Below are positions 9,873 to 60,673 of a stretch of DNA of 64,000 bases, piece after piece. The position numbers and the translations under genes were made by a program. Below the pieces are notes generated by a model that saw only the letters and a list, made by a program, of their open reading frames with translations, was not told the origin of the DNA and ran no database searches. This DNA comes from Okamejei kenojei (lineage: Eukaryota), in NCBI GenBank assembly GCA_035221665.1, contig CM069135.1, forward strand, positions 76,694,001-76,758,000, read 5' to 3'. Within the stretch, counting starts at the first letter, position 1. Each line of letters opens with the position of its first letter.

Positions 9873-10937
9873 AGTAATAGTGTGCACATAATCTGTTTCT
9901 GATGGTGTTTTTTGAGGGTTCGCAATTGACCAAAGCATTGGGAAATCTTCCCGACTCTTCAAGATAGTGCTTTGAGATATTTTCCGTCCAATTAAGAGAA
10001 TTTCCAGAACTCAGTTTAATGATCCATTTGAAAGACTGACCATGGAACATTCCCTCAGAACAATTCTGAAGTTTCAAACACTACTAATTTATTTTGAAGT
10101 TTCTGGAGTGGGAATTGCACTCACACCCTTTTTTTGGGAGGTAAGCATTCTATCAGTTGAGTCATCATAACTCGTTATCCAAAATGGTTGAATATGAGAG
10201 GTCACATTTTATATCTAAGAAATTGTGATGAACATGTTGTTTTGCCAGTTAGCTTTTTTTTAAGTTGCTTTTTTGTTTCTGTGATGCTTTAGTTGGGACA
10301 CCTCTCTATCTCTTCACCTTACTCAATTACAAGCCTCATCCCAACAAAAGGGAAAGAAGCTGAGGGCAAAAGATAGCGAAAATAAAATGTGGTCTAAAAT
10401 TCCTTAGATCCAGGATTGCTTTAATAATTTACCTCAAGAAGAGTTAGGCTTGTAATGAAAGTTTTTCATTAATCTCTTAAAAAAGAACATAAGATTTGAT
10501 GGCATCATTGAACATTTTCTAAAGTCCACACCGACCCATTCACATTAGTTCTGTTCCAGGTGTTCTCCAACTCTCCCAGCCCCCAATGACCATGACCTTG
10601 CCCGACTCGGCAATCCTCTGAGATTTCTGCTCTTCACTAATTCTTCTCTTCTGAAATCTTTTTTTGTGTGTTATTTTCATTCCAGCATTGCTAAAGGCAC
10701 TTGCATTCATTTGTTGACTAAGAAAGGAGCACCTGAGAATGCAAGGTCTGGAATTCTTTCCCAAACCCTCACTTACTCTCTACATTCTTGCCATGAAATA
10801 ATTTGAATAGACTTTTCAGGTGCCATTATTCAGCCCTTTGTCACCTTCCTTAATATATTCTTACATGACAAATTTAGTTTGAAAATACTCATGTGAAATA
10901 CTTTGGGATGCCAAAGCTGCTACAGTTATACAGTTAT

Positions 10938-11070
10938 TGAGTCTGAGGAACGGTCTCGGCCTAAAATGTCACCTATTCCTTCTCTCCAGAGATGCTGCCT
11001 GTCCCACTGAGTTACTCCAGTATTTTGTGTCTATCTTCGACTTAAGCCAGCATCTGTAGTTCCTTCCTAC
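10938..11070 (+). mobile_element. Penelope-derived pseudo-LTR fragment with degenerate hammerhead core
   Basis: gtctgaggaacggtctcggcctaaaatgtcacc...gttccttcctacac; acagttatac on both sides. Confidence 0.7.
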
Positions 11071-11598
11071 ACAGTTATACAAGTTGTTGCATTTGTTGCT
11101 GTCCAGGTTAACTTGACCTTGAGGAAAGGATTGTGCAAACCTGTTGATCTAAGGAGTTTAGTTTAGTTGAGAGACAGAGCACAGAAACAGGCTCTTTGGC
11201 CCATTGAGTCCATGTCGACCAGTGATCCCTGCACATTAACACTATCGTACACACCTTAGGGACAATTTATAATTTAACCAAGCCAATCAGCCTACAAACC
11301 TGTATGTCTGTGGAGTGTGGGTGGAAACTGGAGATCCTGGAGAAAACCCACGCAGATCATGTGAGAACATAAAAACTCTGTACAGACAAGCGCCCATAGC
11401 AGAGCTGCCAACTCTCACGCATTGAGCGTGAGACTCACGCATTGAACGTGAGACGCATTTCGCCCAATTCTCATGCTCTCATGCTGATCACAGAATTTCT
11501 CACGCTCTGCCGTGAGAAATTCTGTGATCAATGAGAATTTCAAAACTAATATCAACTGTATGGGCCGTGGGTGTTGGAGAGCCGGGGTGGAGGGAGGG

Positions 11599-11831
11599 AT
11601 GGAAGCAGAAGCAGCGGCAGGGGCAGATAAGGACGAGGAGCCGGGGCTGGCGAGTGTTTGCTGGGCTGGCAAGTAGCTCGCTGCAGCTCCGGCCATGGAG
11701 CAGCCTCAGTGCAAGAGTCGGAGACGTCAGAAGCGTTGCGCCGCTGCTGTGAGAGTCTCTGTGCCGAATTCACCCTGATGGATCAGGCTGTGGCTCGCTG
11801 CATCCTGGAGGACAACCAGTGGCTGCTGGAC
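11599..11831 (+). pseudogene. TDP2: Captured fragment resembling TDP2 coding exon 1 (N-terminal UBA-like domain)
   Basis: Frame of ORF 11658 reads LRRCCESLCAEFTLM---DQAVARCILEDNQWLLD versus recalled human TDP2 VKKRRLLCVEFASVASCDAAVAQCFLAENDWEME; followed by ctaggt, a GTAGGT donor with g>c. Confidence 0.65.
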
Positions 11832-11939
11832 CTAGGTACCAAGCACTGGGTAGAAGTGGTGGAAGATAGTGGCTGTCAAATGGGGGTGGTTGGAGAAAGC
11901 ATCCTGCTTGCCTGCTAGATTTTCACTTACTGTAACTGC

Positions 11940-14900
11940 AGGAAAAATGTTCCCGATGTTGGGGGAGTTCAGACCAGGGGTCACAGTTTAAGAATAAGAG
12001 GTAGGCCATTTAGGACTGAGATGCGGACAAACTTTCATCACCCAGAGAGTTGTTAATCTGTGGAATTCTCTGCCACAGAAGGCAGTGGAGGCCAATTCAC
12101 TGGATGTTTTTAAGAGAGAGTTACATTTAGCTCTTGGAGCTTGCGAAATCAAGGGATTGACCTTAACTGGAGTGGGACTGACATTCTTGCAGGCAGGTTT
12201 GCTAGGGCTACACGTGTGGGTTTAAACTAAATAGTGGGGGGAGGGATTGACAAATTGGGAGTATAATGATGGAGTTGAAGGGGAAGTGAGTACAGGAAAA
12301 ATCACAAAAGAGTCTCGAATTAATAGTAAGGAAAGTTCAAGAAGGGATAAAAGTGTAAGGTCAGGGCCAATTGTGAGCCGTGCGAGGGGGGATGTGAATA
12401 CGGAGGTCAAAGTGTTGTATATGAATGCGCAAAGTATAAGAAATAAAGTGGACGAGCTTGAGGCTCAGTTACAAATTGGCAAGTATGATGTTGTGGGAAT
12501 TACAGAGACATGGCTGCAAAAGGGCCAGGGCTGGGAACTGAAAATTCAAGGGTATACCTCCTATCGAAAAGACAGACAGGTGGGCAGAGGGGGTGGCGTT
12601 GTTCTGTTGGTGAGGAATGAAATTCAGTCCCTTGCAAGGGGTGACATTGAAACAGGAGATGTGGAGTCAGTATGGATCGAACTAAGGAATTGTAAGGGTA
12701 AAAAAACCCTAATGGGACTTATCTACAGACCCCCAAACAGTAGCCTGGACATAGGGTACAAGTTGAATCAGGAATTAAAATTGGCATGTAGCAAAGGTAA
12801 TGCTGTGGTTGTTATGGGAGATTTCAACATGCAGGTAGACTGGGAAAATCAGGTTGGTACTGGACCCCATGAAAGGGACTTTGTAAAGTGCCTTTGTGAT
12901 GGATTCTTAAAGCAGCTTGTATTGGAGCCTACCAGGGAGAAGGCAATTCTGGATTTAGTGTTATGTAATGAACCAGATTTGATAAAGGACCTCGAGGTTA
13001 ATGAGCCATTAGGAAGTAGAGACTATAACATGGTCAGGTTTAACCTACAATTGGAGAGGGAGAAGGGTAGATCGGAGGTGTCAATGTTACAGTTGAATAA
13101 AGGGGACTATGGGGCCATGAGGAAGGAGCTGGCCAAAGTTGACTGGAACGATACACTAGCAGGGATGACAGTGGAACAAAAATGGCAGGTATTTCTAGGA
13201 ATAATACAGGAAGTGCAGGATCAGTTCATTCCTAGGATGAAGAAATATTCCAAGGGGAGTAAGGGGTGACCTTGGCTGACAAGGGACGTCAGGAACAGTA
13301 TAAAAATAAAAGAGAAGTACAACATAGCAAAAATGAGCGGGAAGCAAGAGGATTGGGTAATGTCTAAAGAGCAACAGAAGATAACCATATAACCATATAA
13401 CAATTACAGCACGGAAACAGGCCCTCTCGGCCCTTCCAGTCCGTGCCGACCATGGAAGGGCCGAGAGGGCCTGTTTCCGTGCTGTAATTGACTAAAATTG
13501 ACTAAATAACTAAAAAGACAATACGGAGAGAAAAGATGAGGTACAAAGATAAGCTAGCCAAGAATATAAAGCAGGATAGTAAAAGCTTCTTTAGGTATGT
13601 GAAGAAAAAAAATCAGTTAAGACCAAAGTTAGATCCTTGAAGACCGAAAAAGGTGAATTTATTATGGGGAACAAGGAAATGGCAGATGAGTTGAACAGGT
13701 ACTCTGGATCCGTCTTCACAAAGGAGGACACAAACAATTTTCCTGATATAGTAGTGGCCAGAGGATCTGGGGTAACGGAGGAACTGAAGGAAATCCACAT
13801 TTGGCAGGAAATGGTGGCAGATTTGTATTTTACAGGAAGGGTTTAGAGGGCCTTTGGTCAAATGCAGGCAAAAGGGACTAGCCCAATACACCAACTTAGT
13901 TGGCAAGGACAAGATGGGCCAGAGAGCCCATATCCCAGTTGTACAGCTCTATGCCTTGATGACTCTAAATATGGTTCTTGTCATGTTTCTTCCTGATATA
14001 GTAGTGGCCAGAGGATCTGGGGTGACGGAGGAACTGAAGGAAATCCACATTAGGCAGGAAATTATGTTGGGTATACTGATGGGACTGAAGGCTAATAAAT
14101 CCCCAGGGCCTGATGGTCTGCATTCCAGGGTACTTAAGGAAATGGCTCTCGAAATCGTGGATGCATTGGTGATGGTTTTCCAATGTTCGATAAACTCAGG
14201 ATCAGTTCCTGTGGATTGTAGGGTAGCTAATGTTATCCCACTTTTTAAGAAAGGCGGGAGAGAGAAAACAGGGAATTATGGACCTGTTAGCCTGACATCG
14301 GCAGTGGGGAAGATGCTGGAGTCAATTATAAAAGATGAAATAGCCACACATTTGGATAGCAGTAACAGGATCGGTCCGAGTCAGCATGGATTTACGAAGG
14401 GGAAATCATGCTTGACTAATCTTCTGGAATTTTTTGAAGATGTGACTAAGAAAATGGACAAGGGTGAGCCAGTGGATGTAGTGTACCTGGACTTTCAGAA
14501 AGCATTTGATACGGTCCCACATAGGAGATTAGTGGGCAGAATTATGGCGCATGGTATTGGGGGTGGAGTGCTGACATGGATAAAAAATTGGTTGGCAGAC
14601 AGGAAACAGAGAGTGGGGATTAACTGGTCCCTTTCAGAATGGCAGCCAGTGACTGGTGGGGTCCGCAAGGCTCGGTGCTGGTACTGCAGCTATTTACAAT
14701 ATACATCAATGATTTGGATGAAGGGATTCAAAGTAACATTAGCAAATTTGCAAATGACACAAAGCTGGGTGGCAACTGTGTGAACTGTGAGGAGGATGCT
14801 ATGTGAATGCAGGGTGGTTTGGACAGGTTGGCGGAGTGGGCGGATGCATGGCAGATGACGTTTAATGTGGAGAAATGTGAGGTTATCCACTTTGGTAGTA

Positions 14901-15788
14901 AAAACAGGAAGGCCGATTCCTATCTAAATGGCGTCAAGTTGGGAAAAGGGGAAGTACAGCAGGATCTGGGGGTCCTTGTTCATCAGTCTATGAAAGTAAG
15001 CATGAAGGTACAGCAGGCTGTGAAGAAAGCAAATGGCATGTTATAACAAGAGGAATCGAGTATTGGAGCAAAGAGGTCCTTCTGCAGTTGTACAGAGCCC
15101 TAGTGAGACCACACCTGGAGGATTGTGTGCAATTTTGGTCCCCTAATTTGAGGAAGAACATTCTTGCTATTGAGGGAGTGCAGCATAGGTTTACAAGGCT
15201 AATTCCCGGGATGGAGGGACTGTCATATGCTGAGAGAATGAAGCAGCTGGGCTTGTACACTCTGGAGTTTAGAAGGATGAGAGGTGATCTTTTTGAAACA
15301 TATAAGATTGTTAAGGGTTTGGACACGCTGGAGGCAGGATACATGTTCCCAATGTTGGGGGAGTCCAGAACCAGGGGCCACAGTTTAAGAATAAGGAGTA
15401 AGCCATTTAGAACAGAGATGAGGAAACACTATTTCTCACAGAGAGTAGTGAGTGTGTGGAATTCTCTGCCTCAGAGGGCGGTGGAGGCAGGTTCTCTGGA
15501 TGCTTTCAAGAGAGAGCTGGATAGGGCTCTTAAAGATAGTGGAGTCAGGGGATATGGGGAAAAGGCAGGAACAGGGTACTGATTGGGGATGATCAGCCAT
15601 GATCACATTGAATGGCGGTGCTGGATCGAAGGGCCGAATGGACTACTCCTACACCTATTGTCTATTGTCTATTGATATGGGAAAAAAAACTGGAAAGGTA
15701 CTGATTTTAGATGAACAGCCATGATCATATTGAATGGCTCGAAGGGCAGAATGGCCTATTCTTGCACCTATTTTGTATGTTTCTATGC
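11940..15788 (+). mobile_element. Older CR1 3' fragment (11940-12157 plus 15675-15788) split by a younger CR1
   Basis: ...gaaatcaagggat | gatatgggaaaaaa...cacctattttgtatgtttctatg rejoin as a CR1 3'UTR. Confidence 0.75.
12160..15675 (+). mobile_element. CR1 LINE, near-complete ORF2 (APE endonuclease + RT) with stops and frameshifts
   Basis: VLYMNAQSIRNK, GITETW, GDFN, ILDLVL (EN); SPGPDG, QHGF, YLDFQKAFD, LVRPHLE, WNSLP (RT); (ctattgt)n tail. Confidence 0.95.
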
Positions 15789-15857
15789 CTGAGTATATGG
15801 CAATAAAACTCGACCACTTGATTGTGAAGCATTCATGCAGGGTGGAGGTATAATGTA

Positions 15858-16092
15858 GTCATAGAGTGATACACTGTGAAAACAGGCCCTTTAGCCCAAC
15901 TTGCCCTCACCCGCCAACATGTCCCAGCTACACTACCTGCTTTTGGTCCATATCCCTCCAAACCTGCTTTTGGTCCATATCCATGTATATGTCTAACTGT
16001 TTCTTAATTGTTGGGATAGTCCCTGCCTCAACAACCTCCTCTCGCAGCTTGTTCCATACACCCACCACCCTTTGAGTGGAAAATGTTACCCC
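15858..16092 (-). mobile_element. CR1 (HER1-like) 3' end with a 27-nt tandem duplication
   Basis: gtcatagagtgatacactgtgaaaacaggccc...; acctgcttttggtccatatcc occurs twice. Confidence 0.75.
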
Positions 16093-19000
16093 TTAAAAAG
16101 TTATGTCTTAAACATACTTCAAACAAAAAACATTGAAATCATACTTCTACAATGGACTAAAACATGATTTTAATACAAAAAGTCCCTATCCCCACTCGGT
16201 CGATCCACTCCCTCACCAGGTACCCCAAGGCCAGTGATCAGTGATCACTCAGCCCCCCCCCCCCCCCCCCACTTTCCAAAATGCCCCGTGGCCCCTGGTT
16301 CAGATGGAGAGCACTGCCAGATGTGAGCGGGGAACTGAGGCCAGTTGACCGTGATGTCTGGATCCCAATGATCAGCCCTTCATGTTTCGGAGTTGGCTAA
16401 TGTTATTGATTTGTAATTAGCCTGATTTGTAATTAGTTGACAAAACCTTAATTTATGAATCCGGAATATCCAGGGGGATGGGATAAGTGTAATATTAAAA
16501 TGACATGCAAGCTGTCAGGCTGTCTGTCACAACATACAGCCCCGATAACCCATTATTTCCTTCAGTTAAATATTGGGAAGGTAGCACTATTGTCATTTGC
16601 CACTCAACTATTAGGTTTGATTACCTCACTGACTACATCAACCCCCCCCCAAATTCCTTTGACTGGTTGAATAGAAATATCCCCAATCTCGTTTTCTTAT
16701 TAACTGAACACATAGATGAACATCCTCAAGGCATGTAATCAGATGGAAACTGATTCAGATGCAATGTTTAAGAGCTTGTTCAAAGAAGGGGCATATTTTA
16801 AAGGAGTGACAGAAATACTTGCAGGGGAATGTGTGATGAGGTTATTATTTGTCTTTAGTTTTAGCTTGAACCAGGACATCTGAAGATTCAAAGTTGAATA
16901 TAGTAATTGTGCTGATACTGACTCGAACCAACCATGTAATGAATATCATCCATTCCGGAGGTTTTATATTTCTCATGCCTTTAAACTTCACTTGGATTTC
17001 AATCACTTCAATGTAAAAGTAATTGGTAATGGGGAGCATTGGAACAAAAAATTGCCCTTGGTACATATTAACTGTAATATAATAATGTCTGCATGTTGGT
17101 AGGTACAATCAAAACAAATATCTTTTTTATCATTGTTGTGTTATGAATACCACAGAAAATATTATGTACTCTCAAGATCACATTAAATAGAATATTATTG
17201 CTTAAATATATAGTTATTGGACTTTGCATTTCAGAAAAGTCCCAGCTGAGAGGAAGACAGCAAAACACTGAAAACATTGGGGGTGAAAATTATTTCAGGA
17301 CAATTTGTTAGGAAAATTAAGGAAATGGTAATAGAATACTTATACAGCTGAGTGAGTATAATTTTATGGATGAGAAATTGTGTTCCACCAATTGATGACT
17401 TATTTGACAAAGTAAATAGCATGTTAGATAACAAGGAGGCTAACGAATGGAGCAAATTTTGTTATTTGGTCCGTGAAGTGCCCCATAAAATATTACCACA
17501 TTAGGTAAGCACCTGTGGACTTGAACATAATAGGTTAAGTTCAGGAGGTCAGATGTGGGGCTTTATGTGTGGGCCAGATATATTGTCAGTGCAGAAGGGC
17601 TAGGAGCAAGGCCAAGTGTGCATCCAGAGTCAAGGTCTGGAATAGTATTAGTTGTGCAGCCAAAGCTGGGACAATGGGAGTGTTCAGCACCGGAAACCTA
17701 AGCAGGTAGCTATGATCAGGGCATAATAGGGGGCCAGGTGTAAGGCTGGACTCAGGGTCAGGAATGAGTGAAGGTATGCAACTGGAGTCAGAGTCAGCAA
17801 TAGTACCCGGTGTGCAGTGAGACCCAGGTTGGTCAACATGTACCAAGTACTTGATTATAATCTGATTTCCATACATGAATACACTAAGATCATTCATGTG
17901 CTGCACCTGTTTATCTGAGCCTGGCTCTACTGTGGAATGTAATTAGGAATGTAATTTAGCCTAACCTTATTCATAGCTAATCCAATTTAAAGCATAAATA
18001 TTGCATTCAAGTGTAAGTTAAAAGACTCACTACAGTATGCACCAGATTGCACAATTTCAAGCTGAAAAATGCAACAGCAACATACCAAGCTCCGACATCC
18101 CCTTCCCACGCCCCCCCCCCCCCCCCCCACAATCACTAGACTCCCTCGGGCTTGGTCTCTCGCAATTTCGCACTGCCAACTCTCACCCAAATTTGGCAAC
18201 TTGCCGTAGCCAGGATCAAACCTGGGTCTCTGCCGCAGTAAAGTAGCATCTCTACCACTGCGCCACCGTGCCAAACATGGAGTTCCCTGAATTCTGGTGG
18301 CAGCCCAGCTACCTCTGAGCCTGGCTCTCTGGCTCTGCCATCTCGAGTGGTTGAATACGAGAGATAATGTTTTATATCTCAGAAACTGGTATTGCTAGTC
18401 TGCCGTTTTACCAGTTAATTTTCCAGTTGCGTTTCATTTCTCTAATGACTTAGGTTAAACATTTCCCTTTGGTCTTTATCTTATTCAAGCAATTAGCCTA
18501 ATTACAGGCCTTCAATCCCAGCAATAGGGATTTAAACTGGCAGCAAAAAAACTAAAATAAAATGCTATCTAGTATTCTCTTGCCCCAAGCTTGCTTTGGT
18601 AATGGTTATTGACAGATAATATAATCCAAGAGTACTATTGGCAAAATTGAATGAAATTGACAGATGATGAATAATAATGTGAAAAACATGATATGTTAGG
18701 TAAATTAGGTTATTTTTGAAATGTCCAAATTAGATTGTTACATGCATATTTAAAAAAAAACTGCAATTTTCAAAAGCCAATACTCTGAAATTGGAATTAT
18801 GATGCTATATTTCTTTACGGAAAATCGTTCAGTTCTGGAGCAGAGAAAATAAAGCATTCATCTGAGTAATTCGTATAAACTGGAGCCATATGGCAAACCA
18901 TAATAGTTCTGAGGGAGCTCGGTAATGTATGCTCTTTCCACTGAAGCTCAGGGTGATATCAACTGACTGAAGAGAAATTAACATGATGTGCTATGGAGCA

Positions 19001-19598: not shown

Positions 19599-19659
19599 AT
19601 GTGGGGCAGAGTAATTTCAGACCACAAGAATGGCTTTACGATCTGCAGAAGACAAGCAG
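19599..19659 (+). CDS. CEP85L: CEP85L coding exon 1 (MWGRVISDHKNGFTICRRQA-G, phase 1)
   Basis: MWGR start and ...AG end match recalled human CEP85L (MWGRFLAPE...FPAG); donor CAG|gtaaaa; 61 nt, phase-compatible with the 42507 exon. Confidence 0.85.
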
Positions 19660-20465: not shown

Positions 20466-20725
20466 GGGGGTGGCGCAGTGGTAGAGTTGCTGCTTTACAA
20501 CGCTCGATCCTGTCTGTACGGAGTTTGTACATTCTCCCTGTGACCGAGTCAGTTTTCTCCGGAAGCTCCGGTTTTCTCCCACGGTCATACAGGTTTGGAA
20601 ATTTATTCGCTTTGGAAAAAATTGTAATTGGTCCCTGGTGTGTAGGATACTGTTAGTATACGAGGGTGACGACTTGGTGGGTTGAAGGGTCTGCTTCCGC
20701 ACTGTATCTCTAAACTAAACTAAAC
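20466..20725 (+). mobile_element. tRNA-derived SINE
   Basis: ggtggcgcagtggtagagttgctg...ggagtttgtacattctccc...(taaac)n tail. Confidence 0.8.
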
Positions 20726-21502
20726 TACCGCCACTACTGACTGTGGGTAAACTTTTCCCTTGCGTTTACCCACAGTCAGTGGTGGCGGTAGTTTAGACTT
20801 TATGCCTTTGAGCTTCCAGGTCAGATTTCAGTGGCACAAATGTGTTCTTCACTGTTTTATTTTAGATAAGACCTATTCCAATGTGATTGTGTGAACAATA
20901 GTAGATAATATATAGCCATATGTCATAATGTTCCAATCGCTAAGCTTACAACCCAATGATATGAATTCTCCAACTTCAAATAATCCCAACAATCCCTCTT
21001 TCTTTCAAAATAGTGTAACATTAGATAGTCACCCATTATATAAAACCAATTTGGTAGTGTAAACAGAACAAAACTGGATATATTTGGCTCATTCTCTCTT
21101 AGCTTTCTTTGCTACTTTGATAAAGAAGCTTGTTAAACCTGGGGAAAATTTAAAAAAAGTTCCTTTTACCTATGAAGTTAGAAAGCTCCTGTCAACTAGA
21201 AAGACAGAGTTGATCCTGACGCACTCCTCATCTGCTGCCTGCATTTTCTGGGAGGGGATAATGAATAGCAGCTGACACCAAGGTGCCTTGGCTGTTTTTA
21301 TCCACAACCTACACAGGACATTGAAACTGATTAGTGTTATTATCAGCATCTTGGATTAACTTGGTTAAATCACAGACTAAGGATTATACATCACATGATC
21401 AGGAATGCTATTTGGCAAAATAGGTCTGATGCAGAGATCTCAAAATGAAGCTAATTTGGATATTGATCAATTGTTGCAGATACTGAAAGTCTCCTATAAA
21501 TG

Positions 21503-21815: not shown

Positions 21816-22395
21816 ATTCAATACAAGTGTGCAGTGAGATTGATGCATTAGGAAATTATAATATACATATAATATAAATAAGAATTCTTTCTGAGATATG
21901 TTTGCTGGGTCCCTCAAATGATGCAGCGACATAGTCTGAGCGAAACGTCGGCAGACTATGTAGTCTACCGTCTACCCACGCATCCTGTTCATTAGCTGAA
22001 GAGTAGTGGTTCCTGCCCACAGGAGAAATTGTCCGAAATGGCATCTAGGGACTGAACAATGTTGGCCATTAATGTTGGGTTAATGACTAAAGGGCCATTT
22101 CCCAAAATGAATGACAGTCTTCACTAAGGGAAGAATTTAAGTGAGAATGGTTTCATTGTCAGTGCTTTGTGGCAGAATAATAATTTGCTCTTATCATCTC
22201 AGCAATTGAACTAAAATGAGTGATGTTTAAACTGGTGTGAAACGTGGAAGCTACTGTTCCCCATTAAATCACACACCTCACTGATTATCAGAAATAAGTG
22301 GTTTAATTTTTCAATTTCATTTTTGTCATTAGCTGAGTAATCCAGAGGCATTCTTTTTGCCTCATCCTTTGAGATTTCTCACCTTTCCAGATCAG

Positions 22396-22558
22396 NNNNN
22401 NNNNNNNNNNNNNNNNNNNNNNNNNNNNNNNNNNNNNNNNNNNNNNNNNNNNNNNNNNNNNNNNNNNNNNNNNNNNNNNNNNNNNNNNNNNNNNNNNNNN
22501 NNNNNNNNNNNNNNNNNNNNNNNNNNNNNNNNNNNNNNNNNNNNNNNNNNNNNNNNNN
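22396..22558. other. Assembly gap (163 N)
   Basis: Run of n characters. Confidence 1.
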
Positions 22559-22914
22559 ACCAGACATATGGACATTAATCTAGGGACGCATTCAAAATCC
22601 ACAGATAGCAGCAGTGGAATTTAAATGCAGTCAGTAACCAGAATTGTTATTAATAATGACCAAACTACTGATTGTACCTTTCAGGAGAGAAAATTGCTCT
22701 CTTTGCTCAATTTGGATTATATGTGATTCCAGAACAATCAATAGAGTTTGCTATTAAATGCCCCCTGAAGCTAAGCCACCATAAATACTGCATTGTAACT
22801 GGGAAAGAAAGCCTGGCGATCTACCTTCATTGGTAAAGAATGGCTTTTTCCTCATGGGCTTAACTAGTTTTATAAAAGGAATTTTATAATGCCGGTTTGG
22901 GGATTGGTGTCGAG

Positions 22915-37979: not shown

Positions 37980-39957
37980 CAGTGCCAGATTTACCTATAG
38001 ACTTGTTAGGCTGAAGCCTAGGGCCTCAGAATCTAGGGGGTCTCTGGCCAAGGTGTATAATATTTTTGACACTGTCATAGGCATTTCTTACAAACGCTGT
38101 CACAACGCACTGTTCTCTCTAAACAACCATAATTTTCCTTTTCCTTTGAAATGCCATCCATTTCAGAAGAATACTGTTTTAAGCTGATAACTCGACACTA
38201 GCACTGGCAATAAATACATTTATAAAAAGCGAAGCTTTCCAGCCCCTTATCTCATTGGTCATGCTCAGCTGCACATCGGTGTCAATCTGGTGGCACCGGG
38301 GTCCGGCATACTTTCACACGTGCTCCTGTAAGCAGCGATGGTCGGTGCAGGGAACACCTTTGGATACTTGCAGGCTTCAAAAGACAAAACTCAGGGGTTA
38401 GTAGGAAAGTGCAAAGATATTTGAACTAAGAAGTTGGCAATGAGTAATGCTAGGGATAGAGCTAGAAACTTACTGTGTAGTGCTGTGGCTGCCACTGTCA
38501 GGTTAGTAATAAAACTAAGCTTATTTGTAGCATCTTTGTTAACGATAGGAAAAAGCATATTCGTTTTGTAAACGGTTTTTGGAAGCACATTTGGAAGAAC
38601 TGGAATTTGTGTTTATGCTGTATTTTTGGACCTGTGTGCTAGGTCATTTCCACAAGGTCAACAAAGCCATTCAGAAATCAAAACTGTTATTGAGTACTTG
38701 TGCAAGTTTGTACAGTTCACTTCAGGATTTTTTTAAGCAATGTTAGAGAAGATTTTTGATGAGCTTGAGCAACAAGCAAAGGCCACCTTGCCAAATGTTA
38801 ACTACGGAAGTGTCACAGGGAGACAAAAAGTAAGGAAACGGCAAGGAAATGATGGATGTGCACCAGGTCCTGATGTTTTAGATAAACTCTCTTCAGGAGA
38901 TAAGTTTAGGATAAAATCCTTTATTCCTATACTAGATGCACTTGAAACCAATTTAAGAAGAAGAGCTACTGTGTACAGTGATGTTGCACAAATGTTTTCA
39001 TTTCTTGCTAATCTGACCGTATCTAAGCAAGAAATTCAGCAAGGTGTTAACCTGTTGATGGAAGCATATCCAGAAGATGTTGACCTGAAACTTACGGATA
39101 AACATTTGCACTTTCACTTGTATGTGAGACAAAGCCATAGGCCTACAGAAGAGCACTCTCTGTCTCATACAGACCTTTATCAAATTATATACAAGGACAA
39201 AATTCAGATGGCCTTCCCCAATGTGGAAGCAATCTTGCTGCTGTTTCTTATCTTAATGGTCACTAACTGCTCGGGAGATAGGTATTCTACAAGACTCAAA
39301 AGAATTAAAAATGAATTAAGGGCCACAATGTCTCAAGACAGGTTGTCAGCACTGAGCATTCTGTGCATTGAGAGTGACAAACTTAGACAAACACATTTTG
39401 ATGAACTTCTGGATGATTTTGCAATGAGGAAGGCTAGAAACTTTTTTTGTCTCAAAGTATTTGATGATTGTAGTTTATTTATTTCTTAACATGTCAATAT
39501 ACAGTAGGATCTAAAAGTGTCACACTGTCACTGTCAGGTAGTCATGGTCTTCTTATTATCACTTCCCAGGCAATAACCTTTTAAGCTCACATTTTTGATT
39601 GTTTTTTTTATTTTTATTTTTTAATATAAAAGTAAACCTACAATTTTATTTTCCTAAAAATTCCTGCTTATTCCACAAAATGTTTACAAAGTTCAGTTAT
39701 AGCAAAAGTTTTTCACAGTGTTCATTTTAACATTCATGCATTTTTTTTTCAATCACTACAGTATTTAACAATAACATTTTATGTCCTTTAGACAAGGAAT
39801 TGCGAATTGCGGAATTTTAAACACCCGTCATCATCCTTGGCTTTACTCAAATTATTTAAAACACTCTTCCATCTTCCTCTAGTCGTGGGGGTGGGGATTG
39901 GGAGGGGCCTCACAAGTGGAATAGCCTAGGGCCTCTCTTCATCTAAATCCGGCATTG
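37980..39957 (+). mobile_element. hAT DNA transposon, internally deleted
   Basis: Perfect 8-bp TSD tttgcagg (37972-37979 and 39958-39965); imperfect TIRs cagtgccagattta / taaatccggcattg. Confidence 0.92.
38740..39489 (+). pseudogene. hAT transposase C-terminal remnant (hATC dimerisation domain)
   Basis: AFPNVEAILLLFLILMVTNCSGDRYSTRLKRIKNELRATMSQDRLSALSILCIE matches the hAT FP...T..S.ER.FS.LK.IK..LRS.M...RL..L motif, with the catalytic ER-FS decayed. Confidence 0.85.
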
Positions 39958-42506
39958 TTTGCAGGCATATGAGATTGTTTTAGTTTGGCATCATGGTTGC
40001 TGCAGACATACTAAGCAGGAGGGGCCTGTTCCTGTCCCAAACTGTTTAATTCAATGTTCCAACCTAACCTACAGCAGGTTTAACAAGCAGTTCCCACCTC
40101 CTGGAAATAATCAAACCGATTTCTTGAGGCTAGCGTACTGCTGGTATGATTTTCTGGTGTTTTGTCAAAATTATTCAGTCAGTTTTATTCATTGTGAAGT
40201 GTCTCTTCCTACTGTTACCAGTATTTATCTTTAGTTATAATGGGAAACAATAAGCAAAAGGTCACTCAGCAGGTCAGATGGCATCTGTGGAAGGAGAAGT
40301 GGCATTGACGTATATGTTTAAACCCTTCATCAAAACAAGGAAAGGGAGAAATAGGTCGTTTTTAATTTGCAAAGAAGGTGGGAGAGGAATGGCTGGGACA
40401 ATGTGAGCCGACATTACTCATAGTCATACAGTGTTGAAACAGGCCTTTTGGCCCAACTTGCTGTGGATGTAAGTTGTAAAGGTCATCTATTCAATGTGAA
40501 ATGGGAGTAGTGAGAAAGAGAAAATAAATGGAACAAAAGGTAGAGACGAGTGTAGTCAGCCATTACAGAGGTTCATTGTTATTCGGTAAAACTCAGCAAT
40601 CCCAATGCTTTTTATAATTTTCAGTCAACAGTAACTGGATTTTTTTTTCCTTTTCATCACTTTCCCAAACAGTAAAAAACTCATAAATTGAAGTAACTGA
40701 TATATTAACTGACACCTGGAGTTGAACAAAATGTAATAATGATGTAAGAGGAAATGCATGACGAGACATCCATTCCAGTCAATAACACGAAACATGCTCA
40801 TATCATCAGTTTTAGGTTTAGGTTGATTATTTTCATGTGTGCTAAGGTAGAGTGGAATGATGGTGAATGTTTGCGGCATTGATAGTAGTAAATTAGGCAT
40901 GTTACCTTACCTTTCTTTGGCACCAGGCTGATGATGGTCTACTTAAAACAGTTTGGGACCTCAAATGTAGCAGTGAATGGTTAAAGAAGTCTGTGAATAT
41001 CTCTGTCAGCTGGTACGCACAGGTCCTGTGGACACAACTGGGGTCTCCACCCGGGCCAGATACTTTCCATGGATTCACACTCAGGAAAGCCAGTCCTTAA
41101 GTCTGCCACAGTAACCATTGGCACAGGCACACCCAGGATTGACAGTTCTGACACGAGACTGAAGGTGGTATTTTAGCTCTGAAACTCTCGCCGCTGCTGG
41201 GGATGACCGTTGTCTGATACTTGTGTACTGTGAATGTTACTTACCACTAATCAACTCATGCCTGAATATTGTCTAGATCGTGCAACATAGAAAGGTCGAC
41301 TGCTTCATTTTTGGGGAAATTGAAAGTTATTTGAAAAATATGCCATAATTTGCGAGTATTCTCACTTCTGAACATATGGGTAGAAAGTCATTAATGAAGC
41401 AGCTGAAGATGATTGGGCCAAGACACTGCTCCGGGGAACTTCTGCAATGATGTCCTGGGGCTGGAACGATTAACTTCCAACAAGTGCAACAATCTTCCTC
41501 GGTGTATAGTATGAATCCAGTCATTAGAGTGTTTTCTACTTGATGGCCATTCACCAGTTTTACCAGGGCTCCTTGATACCACACTTGGTCAATAGCCATC
41601 TTGATGAGAAGAGCAGTCACTTTCAATTAACCTCCAAAGTTAATCACTTTGACTTCTGTTGGCTCAGGATCTGGAGATAAATGGTTATCATTGAGCAGTT
41701 TTCCATAAACTACTACATTCTGCTTCTTACAGTTCCAGCCTTGTCTACCACCTTTGTTCGTCTTTTTTTTTAAACTCCTCCATACAGATCAGCTATGATT
41801 AATGGAGATTCATCACCCTGTCTCACCTCCTTCTCCCAGTAGTTCTAAACACACTTGCTTTCTTGTTTTAGTTCTCATCAACTTGCATTGTTAACTCCAT
41901 TATTATCTCTACAGATACTGGCTGATCTGCTGTGAACCTACTGAAGTTCTATTTTTATTTTGGGTTTCCACCATATCTAAAATTTTGCTTCCTAATGCAG
42001 ACATGGACTAAGGTGGGCTGGGAGTTACTTTGCTGCCTACGCAGGCACTAGTCAGCAAAAACGACAGAGAAAGCTGCCCAGTCTCGCAACCACTGGATTT
42101 GGTCAAAGCTCAGCAGTCCAGTCACATCTTAATGATGGTGGGCAGTTAAACGGCTAATGGGAGGAGGTAGCTCTGAGTATAAAGCATTTCTGTCAGAGTA
42201 AAGGAGTAGTTACGGGCATGCTGTTCACGTTTAAAATCGTGACAATGAAGTACATTGTCTGCGGGCGTGAAACAGTCAGACAGGCCTGGCCTCTGACTGC
42301 ATCCTTCACAAATGTATCTGAAACCGAAACAAAGTCATGGAGTGAGTCTGTGTGAAATAAAATACAAACTTACAGCTGACAAGAGGTAGAGTAACCTTCA
42401 GGGGCTTTTTGTCCTCTCTAGTATATTCGTGTGGTATTAACCCCAAATGCAGCAAAATGTATCTGTCACTTTTATCTAATTGCTGGCTCAATCTGTCATT
42501 GCCCAG

Positions 42507-42668
42507 GTCCTGATGTTCCACACGCAGGATGGGTTCCAGGTTGTGAAGCAGGGTGGCCAGTCTCCACACCATTGACCAGTGGTCAGAACATCACCAGCAG
42601 AAGATTCAGTGCTGCCTCTGATAGTGGAGACACTGGAATAGGCACTTCAAGTTCAGATAGCATTGAAG
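42507..42668 (+). CDS. CEP85L: CEP85L coding exon 2 ([54 protein letters not shown], phase 1-1)
   Basis: Acceptor cattgcccag|GT, donor GAAG|gtgagt; 162 nt; matches recalled human [23 protein letters not shown] better than paralog CEP85 (DSGDTAIGTSCSDIAE). Confidence 0.9.
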
Positions 42669-59049: not shown

Positions 59050-60673
59050 CAGTGGCTTGCAAAAGTATTCATACCCCTTGAACTTTTCCACATTTTGTCA
59101 CGTTACAACCACAAACGTAAATGTATTTTATTGGGATTTTATGTGATAGACCAACACATAGTGGTGCATAATTATGAAGTTGAAGGAAAATGATACATGG
59201 TTTCCAAATTTTATTACAAATAAAAAACTGAAAAGTGTGGCATGCAAAAGTATTCAGCCCCCTTTACTCTGATACCCCTAAATAAAATCCAGTGTTACCA
59301 ATTGCCTTCAGAAGTCACCTAACTAGTAAATAGAGTCCACTTGTGTGTAATCTAATCTCAGTATAAATACAGCTGTTCTGTGAAGGCCTCAGAGGTTTGT
59401 TAGAGAACATTAGTGAACAAACAATGTTCCTTCGGCATCATGAAGCACAAGGAACACACCAGACAGGTCAGGGATAAAGTTGTGGAGAAGTTTAAAGCAG
59501 GTTAGGTTATAAAAAAATCCCAAGCTTTAAACATCTCACGGAGCACTGTTCAATCCATCATCTGAAAATGGAAAGAGTATGGCACAACTGCAAACCTACC
59601 AAGACATGGCTGTCCACCTAAACTGGCAGGCTGGGCAAGGAGAGCATAGATCAGAGAAGCAGCCAAGAGGCCCATGGTAACACTGGAGGAGCTGCAGAGA
59701 TCCACAGCTCTGGTGGGAGAACCTGTCCACAGGACAACTTTTAGTTGTGCATTCCACAAATCGGGCCTTTATGGAAGAGTGGCAAGAAGAAAGCTATTGT
59801 TGAAACAAAGCCATAAGAAGTGCCGTTTGCAGTTTGCCACAAGCCATGTGGGGGACACAGCAAACATGTGGAGGAAGGTGCTCTGGTCTGATGAGCCCAA
59901 AATTGAAGTTTTTGGGCTAAATGCAAAACGCTATTTGTGGCGGAAAACTAACACTGCACATCACCCTGAACACTCCATCCTCACTGTGAAACATGGTGGT
60001 GGCAGCATCATGCTGTGGGGATGCTTTTCTTCAGCAGGGACAGGGACGCTGGTCAGAGTTGATGGGAAGATGGATGGAGCCAAATACAGGGCAATCGTGG
60101 AAGAAAACCTGTTAGAGTCTGCAAAAGACTTGAGACTGGGCGGAGGTTCACCTTCCAGCAGGACAACGGCCCTAAACATACAGCCAGAGCTACAATGGAA
60201 TGGTTTAGATCAAAGCATATTCATGTGTTAGAATGGCCCAGTCAAAGTCCAGACCTAAATCCAATTGAGAATCTCTGGCAAGACTTGAAAATTGCTGTTC
60301 ACAGATGCTCTCCATCCAATCTGACTGAGCTTGAGCTATTTTGCAAAGACGAATGGGCGAAAATTTCAGTCTCTAGATGTGCAAAGCTGGTAGAGACAGA
60401 CCCCAAAAGACTTGCAGCTGTAATTGCAGCGGAAGGTGGTTCTTCAAAATATTGACTCAGGGGGGCTGAATACTTTTGCACGCCGCACTTTTCAGTTTTT
60501 TATTTGTAATAAAATTTGGAAACCATGTATCATTTTCCTTCCACTTCACAATTACGCACCACTTTGTGTTGGTCTATCACATAAAATCCCAATAAAATAC
60601 ATTTACGTTTGTGGTTGTAACGTGACGAAATGTGGAAAAGTTCAAGGGGTATGAATACTTTTGCAAGCCACTG
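59050..60673 (+). mobile_element. Full-length Tc1 (IR/DR-type) DNA transposon
   Basis: TA TSD on both sides; ~210-nt TIRs starting cagtggcttgcaaaagtattcatacccc; internal direct repeat gcaaaagtattca. Confidence 0.97.
59440..60455 (+). pseudogene. Tc1 DD34E transposase, frameshifted
   Basis: MKHKEHTRQVRDKVVEKF, VLWSDE, TVKHGGGSIMLWGCF, QQDN-x34-E (WPSQSPDLNPIE); several frameshifts and stops. Confidence 0.93.

Follow-up and report, generated by a model that had tools for sequence, protein, structure and literature searches.

A 64,000-nucleotide stretch of the genome of Okamejei kenojei (contig CM069135.1, forward-strand positions 76,694,001 to 76,758,000; hereafter the window, with positions counted from its first letter) carries at 11400-18203 an element of 6,804 bp that splits a short interspersed nuclear element (SINE) 1.4 kb upstream of the start codon of the gene CEP85L. 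This element is probably one copy of a high-copy, non-autonomous, cut-and-paste family of skates: a hAT-like Pack-TIR of about 3.3 kb, present in thousands of copies, with a piece of the host gene TDP2 enclosed between its terminal inverted repeats (TIRs). It works like a Pack-TIR in having inverted ends, a host cargo whose parent gene can be identified from TDP2 protein matches, and no transposase of its own. An earlier note on this DNA, the original prediction, had described a hAT-like Pack element that moves host and retroelement cargo; the non-autonomous TIR carrier and its cargo are borne out by the present analysis, and the hAT affiliation is plausible, though unproven.

The boundaries are marked by the interrupted tRNA-type SINE, which lies on the minus strand with its 3' half (body and AAACT-repeat tail) at 11155-11399 and its 5' head at 18204-18272. 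Aligned with seven other SINE copies of the window, the halves are complementary and have a single meeting point, with only CCATAG (11394-11399) and CCGTAG (18204-18209, both as read on the plus strand) doubled; the two pieces, predicted to be halves of one SINE 6.8 kb apart, rejoin exactly across 11400-18203. When the rejoined site was scored against five intact SINE copies at overlaps of 0-9 bases, six bases gave the best fit for three of the five, and five and three bases for the other two. The target duplication is best read as 6 bp, most simply with one CpG-type mismatch in one decayed copy. Hence, of the degenerate duplication noted earlier (gcccatag/ccgtag), the presence of a repeat on both sides stands, and its reading as a decayed 8-bp sequence gives way to the simpler 6 bp. 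Immediately inside the duplication are the inverted ends, CAGAGCTGCCAA at 11400-11411 on the plus strand and a minus-strand counterpart, one base shorter, at 18193-18203 (TTGGCAACTTG on the plus strand). These termini read as previously quoted, and 10 of their 12 columns match with one gap. Their length, 12 bp, is inside the range of 10-25 bp of the short TIRs that are a hAT trait (PMC3942097).

A sub-question within this explanation is whether the same family and mechanism belong to an ordinary hAT with an 8-bp duplication, the right junction having lost a few bases in this copy. We regard this as possible but not the likelier answer. Duplications of 8 bp are typical of most hAT elements (PMC3942097, PMC12730594), the right TIR is already one base short, and an unrelated hAT in the window (37981-39958) has a perfect 8-bp duplication. 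Against this, an 8-bp duplication requires two or more changes in a span of about 5 bp, whereas the 6-bp reading needs one lost base in the right inverted repeat, and an overlap of eight bases was never the best against the five intact SINEs. Moreover, the proposal that 8 bp would indicate a hAT is too narrow as a diagnostic, since hAT6 elements make 6-bp duplications (PMC12730594).

Both subterminal regions carry a distinctive set of short repeats. On the left (11405-11530, plus strand) these are a 14-mer at 11405-11418, eight CTCACGC-like motifs in both orientations and a palindrome with 20-bp arms at 11485-11530; on the right (18061-18192, plus strand) they are a poly-C tract, three CTCACGC-like motifs and the 14-mer again at 18173-18186. 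The 14-mer, reported earlier near both ends, is exact at 11405 and 18173 and is a direct rather than an inverted repeat; at two or fewer mismatches it has four matches against 0.47 expected, and none of 100 shuffles reaches four. The CTCACGC-like motifs, eight in the first 141 bp and three in the last 143 bp against 1.3 per kb window-wide, are putative transposase-binding sites. A relative of these ends is found on the metagenome contig L001, where a 433-bp element (2102-2534) has perfect 13-bp TIRs and nine CTCACGC-like motifs, and its first 44 bp are 93% identical to those of the skate element, at the left end. The perfect TIRs of this relative support a TIR carrier and are uninformative on duplication length, there being no visible target duplication around it. 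The DNA around this relative matches the window nowhere else and appears to be non-vertebrate. On 44 bp we claim no horizontal transfer, in either direction, between the skate and the host of L001. A 28-nt pattern of the 5' end had a single match in metagenomes, with none in viral contigs and none in genome contigs, and a pattern of the 3' end had no matches in genome contigs. The 54 viral loci that matched a short end pattern were judged to be chance, as none of the 54 extends in BLAST.

The host cargo is a GC-rich segment at 11599-11831 on the plus strand, corresponding to the first coding exon of TDP2 (N-terminus and UBA domain), to which skate TDP2 proteins match in tblastn searches of the window at E 2e-16 to 9e-12. 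The similarity runs from the start codon at 11599 through 'WLL' (11831); host TDP2 then continues 'RALNSYF', and the family proteins P0001 and P0004, from other contigs, read other sequence. The exon frame has a weak match in the PDB to the TDP2 UBA domain (E 0.041) and also finds P0001, a 112-aa protein with a UBA_4 domain, which in turn retrieves skate TDP2 at E 2e-23 and 1e-18 and in an Atlas search gave UBA-like leads only, at 0.85. P0001 and P0004 are 74-78% identical to this copy, and both have the exon with the intron; P0004 spans the terminal region through exon and intron. The 51-residue core of P0001 is 88%, 84% and 80% identical to TDP2 of Leucoraja, Amblyraja and Rhinoraja, respectively; at the level of sequence these values would be compatible with capture within skates, an event that only an outgroup could date. 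At the exon end, GT donor letters make up nearly all of the depth in the DNA runs discussed below (70-85 contigs per run), this copy being without the GT donor. Because the protein match ends where other copies show the donor, the cargo can be understood as genomic exon 1 together with the start of intron 1 (probably 11832-11936, plus strand), captured as DNA. The first exon of human TDP2 ends at the same place. The TDP2-like exon of the original prediction is real, and the captured piece takes in the entire first coding exon and runs on into intron 1; no later TDP2 exons were found in the window. The TDP2 frame of this copy is broken: it has a stop at 11674, shifts frame near 11718 and lacks three codons. 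The UBA domain of TDP2 binds ubiquitin and is required for repair (PMC5137425).

The intron is followed by the 3' fragment of an older CR1, present as a left part at 11937-12157 and a right part, including the tail, at 15674-15786, both on the plus strand. Between them lies a nested, 5'-truncated and broken CR1 LINE (long interspersed nuclear element; 12158-15673, plus strand) with endonuclease, reverse transcriptase and tail. Compared with three other CR1 tails, the older fragment rejoins exactly, with GAT doubled at the flanks of the inserted 3,516 bp, which supports the suggestion that the 3.5 kb CR1 is a later insertion; its removal reduces the element from 6,804 to 3,288 bp. The nested CR1 holds two further inserts. 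One (13381-13505) consists of two SINE/LINE tail pieces placed head to head with perfect 38-bp arms (13401-13490), and is absent from related CR1 contigs; the other (13813-13989) is a 177-bp insert, LINE-tail-like by eye, which within 13740-14062 is flanked by an unusually long direct duplication of 73 bp at 97% identity. The remainder of the element comprises a LINE 3' tail fragment in reverse orientation (15859-16095, minus strand) and an AT-rich, CpG-poor body (16096-18060) with no recognisable protein, possibly more host intron.

The absence of a transposase, as first noted, holds under closer scrutiny: none of the 68 stop-to-stop frames of at least 28 aa outside the CR1s matches a transposase family, and the sole family match among them is to a plant cysteine-rich domain, far under its cut-off. 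The window's own hAT and Tc1 proteins likewise gave nothing below E 0.2 against the element. A frame at 17352-17501, which by eye might have been a decayed reverse transcriptase, was rejected, as it has no Pfam match and its two matches to repetitive proteins were judged spurious. The element body has no match among phages, and Rfam returned nothing at gathering thresholds, its two matches far below threshold falling on the palindrome inside the CR1. The unrelated hAT of the window was also set aside as the partner of the element, as its ends are different. It appears to be internally deleted, with 14-bp imperfect TIRs, the perfect 8-bp duplication TTTGCAGG, and a 250-aa frame of a transposase C-terminus at 38737-39486 (Dimer_Tnp_hAT, E 0.0011, below cut-off).

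Evidence that the element belongs to a large family comes from the depth of contigs of four public runs, of 23 listed, with three of the four being DNA runs (X1, X6 and X7). The flanks of the element are nearly identical in X1 (no difference in 355 letters and 3 in 588) and are 95-98% alike in X6 and X7. The depth of the single-copy flank bins is 15-44 in X1, 99-155 in X6 and 11-25 in X7; that of the TDP2-end bin is 88,586, 296,127 and 33,425, and the mean of the body (six bins, 16140-17801) is 95,519, 383,669 and 55,227, in the same order. Hence, depth at the TDP2 end and in the body is about 1,300-6,400 times that of the flanks, and the body exceeds the 5' end by a factor of 1.08 (X1), 1.30 (X6) and 1.65 (X7). 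In addition, the same majority letters recur in dozens of separate contigs, and a contig of X6 crosses the intron-to-CR1 junction (11937) at 88% identity, well below the identity of the X6 flanks. Two points of the earlier description are corrected by these data. The supposedly unique DNA of the interior (16140-17801) is single-copy within the window only and is high-copy in all three DNA runs, and what seemed a one-off patchwork appears instead to be shared across the family at thousands of copies, including the TDP2 exon, the intron start, the first CR1 fragment and the 2 kb body. Together, the TDP2 end and the 2 kb body look like one high-copy family of about 3.3 kb. What points to a multicopy Pack-TIR is high depth and paralogous junctions in contigs, rather than full-length copies with their own duplications.

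Summed contig depth is no copy number, and our estimate rests on a calibration with three reference repeats in X1, in which window repeat counts are multiplied by 34,375, scaled to the 2.2 Gb assembly of the little skate (PMC10115646). The depth ratios of these repeats in X1 are 311,000, 29,000 and 315,000, and their window copies at 85% or more number 10, 1 and 2 (in all, 16, 12 and 7). The calibration agrees within about 2-fold for the first two repeats, and for the third only if all seven copies are counted. On this basis the family is estimated at 1,500-6,000 copies, of which the order of magnitude, thousands, is safe and the exact number is not. Of the 23 listed runs, 20 cover part of 16100-18400, with a best word share of 0.48 and none reaching half; the idea that this particular copy is absent from the animals behind those runs was nevertheless rejected, as contigs drop rare variants. 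No RNA run is listed as containing the element, and coverage in X15, presumed but not certain to be RNA, is not taken to show expression.

Several observations weigh against the proposed family. Among the listed contigs, beyond which lie a further 6,949 joints and 677,114 pieces, none spans the element, joins the 5' part to the body or joins the body to the right end. Depth in the bin 17802-18078 exceeds that of the body by a factor of 2.3-2.6 in X1, X6 and X7, so this 3' part may be shared with another or a shorter family. The empty site is seen in no run, the flank contigs ending at repeats (10954-10979 and 18313-18347), and a partner transposase was not found. Finally, the length of the target duplication is read from one decayed copy, and the relative on L001 is without any. 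The first two of these points would fit a chimera of two families with related ends, one supplying the 5' part with its TDP2 piece and the other, itself high-copy, the 3' part; recombination or end-bypass transposition would have fused them at this locus alone or in a small number of copies. The departure of the right terminus from the left beyond 12 bp would fit it too. Yet the 5' end and the body have similar depths in three organisms, no second pair of termini was found within the element, and the whole is bounded by one duplication and one split SINE. These observations make the chimera unlikely, and we infer that the two ends are linked throughout the family.

Still less probable is a Helitron-type rolling-circle element like the bat HelibatN3, with inverted ends and duplication arising by coincidence. 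Helitrons are characterized by TC..CTRR ends, a 3' hairpin and the lack of a target duplication. A short hairpin does precede the right end of the skate element, but it is no stronger than in shuffled sequences (z 0.73), neither a 5'-TC nor a 3'-CTRR end is seen, a target duplication is present, and the L001 relative has perfect 13-bp TIRs. Least likely of all is a capture at this single locus by gap filling into a resident TIR element, which is the usual route to animal Pack-TIRs (PMC8277862) and would suit a body that is single-copy within the window, but whose locus-specific cargo is already contradicted, unless the depth reflects a tandem array, by cargo and body at thousands of times the flank depth in three runs, by the majority letters shared among dozens of contigs, and by the paralogous P0001 and P0004 with the same junctions.

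The cut-and-paste family that we favor has features in common with several known systems. Its TIR may resemble Blackjack-type ends. Like hAT6 and hAT5 of the Blackjack lineage, it has short CA..TG inverted ends, subterminal motifs and what is best read as a 6-bp duplication (PMC12730594), whereas, unlike them, it is known without a transposase by which to place it. The duplications of hAT5, hAT6 and hAT7 are 5, 6 and 7 bp against the usual 8 bp of hATs, and hAT6 sits with Blackjack (PMC12730594); judged by such sequence features, the skate family possibly belongs to the hAT6 type. Assignment to IS3EU was rejected, as the ends of the skate element, CAG..TG and 12 bp, differ from the TAYGG..CCRTA ends and TIRs of more than 30 bp that accompany the 6-bp duplication of that group (PMC12730594). 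In terms of cargo, the family is like Pack-hAT-N8_XT of Xenopus tropicalis and Ssk-FB4 of Drosophila: all are non-autonomous, have TIRs and move as a unit together with GC-rich sequence from the 5' part of a host gene. Examples of such multicopy Pack-TIRs have 3-5 copies (PMC8277862), in contrast to the thousands estimated here. It shares with the rice Pack-MULEs the host gene fragments between TIRs and the bias to GC-rich DNA (PMC8277862), but has 12-bp TIRs and a duplication of about 6 bp in place of their long TIRs and 9-10 bp duplications. A further parallel in cargo is HelibatN3, where the first exon and part of the first intron of a host gene were amplified to about a thousand copies, though by a rolling-circle carrier that lacks the inverted ends and target duplication of the skate element; among bat Helitrons, 5' gene pieces reached the highest copy numbers (PMC4224331).

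What is notable about the skate family, then, is its copy number for a vertebrate Pack-TIR. As reported by Tan et al., 100 animal genomes yielded 370 Pack-TIRs, of which four were multicopy; the elephant shark had 0, and no skate was among the genomes included (PMC8277862). That survey was aimed at young elements under strict filters (PMC8277862), so that old families of high copy number would tend to escape it. Neither 'skate' nor 'TDP2' occurs in 12 supplement files of the same paper, and the main texts of two skate genome papers mention neither TDP2 nor hAT. No papers were found that link TDP2 to transposon capture, or to skates and transposable elements, and broader literature searches showed nothing on this family in titles or the openings of abstracts; Repbase, Dfam and subscription journals lay outside these searches, and the family may already be catalogued without its cargo having been noted.

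The history of this copy can be pictured in five steps. A short TIR element would have taken up host TDP2 DNA, observed here as exon 1 and the start of intron 1, most likely by template switching in the course of repair or replication. A transposase acting in trans, most probably that of a hAT of the Blackjack/hAT6 group, would then have recognized the ends and the subterminal CTCACGC motifs, and the element, cargo included, would have been amplified, before the three sampled skate lineages split, to the high copy number indicated by depth. One copy inserted into the SINE 1.4 kb upstream of CEP85L, duplicating 6 bp. The 3.5 kb CR1 entered the older CR1 tail within the element, probably after the arrival of the element at the SINE site, and subsequently received its two inserts, an order shown by the nesting. 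Finally, the copy decayed, as shown by its broken TDP2 frame and splice donor. With both of these broken, this copy is most likely inert at CEP85L.

The neighboring gene establishes the host and the genomic setting. CEP85L has its first coding exon at 19599-19659 on the plus strand, with the start codon at 19599, 1,396 bp past the end of the element, in agreement with the distance of about 1.4 kb given earlier. Its second exon (42506-42667) shows 98% identity to CEP85L of Leucoraja erinacea, the named proteins of other cartilaginous fishes being at 63-83%; the host of the window is a skate. An Atlas search with the CEP85L exon returned nothing. Some ray and shark isoforms of CEP85L (P0015 and P0018) have another 5-residue N-terminus, which implies an alternative first exon; none of this type was found on the plus strand of the window, and the element is intronic to such an isoform if that exon is further upstream. 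A TDP2-CEP85L chimera made from this copy was rejected, as the splice donor carries a mutation and the two exons are in different phases (0 versus 1, as read from the sequence). Intron 1 of CEP85L contains an assembly gap (a run of N) at about 22395-22565. An old direct duplication of about 250 bp, at 65% identity, lies on either side of the element (10185-10428 and 18348-18603) and has no further copy in the window. A 33-bp near-perfect inverted repeat at 20720-20796 comes right after a SINE tail, and a remnant of a Tc1/mariner transposase is found in two frames (HTH_Tnp_Tc3_2 and DDE_3) at 59650-60452.

Host gene capture by cut-and-paste transposons is routine in plants, but most reports from animals describe single-copy accidents. 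If the skate family is what we propose, it would show that in vertebrates TIR elements, too, are able to turn out gene fragments in large numbers, as is known from the Helitrons of bats. In many of the TDP2 cassettes the GT donor is intact, and in some (P0001 and P0004) so is a 112-aa frame with the UBA domain only. An improbable extension is that the family is the cut-and-paste counterpart of the promoter-carrying Helitrons of bats: among thousands of TDP2 first-exon cassettes, some might serve as portable first exons spliced into neighboring genes, encode mini-proteins that bind ubiquitin or give rise to small RNAs by which host TDP2 is tuned, and the cargo may have aided the spread of the family, whose ends would belong to a lineage present also in the distant host represented by L001. 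At a practical level, the family could confound TDP2 annotation and read mapping in skates. More generally, it makes it possible to test whether the capture of 5' gene ends helps a non-autonomous element to spread.

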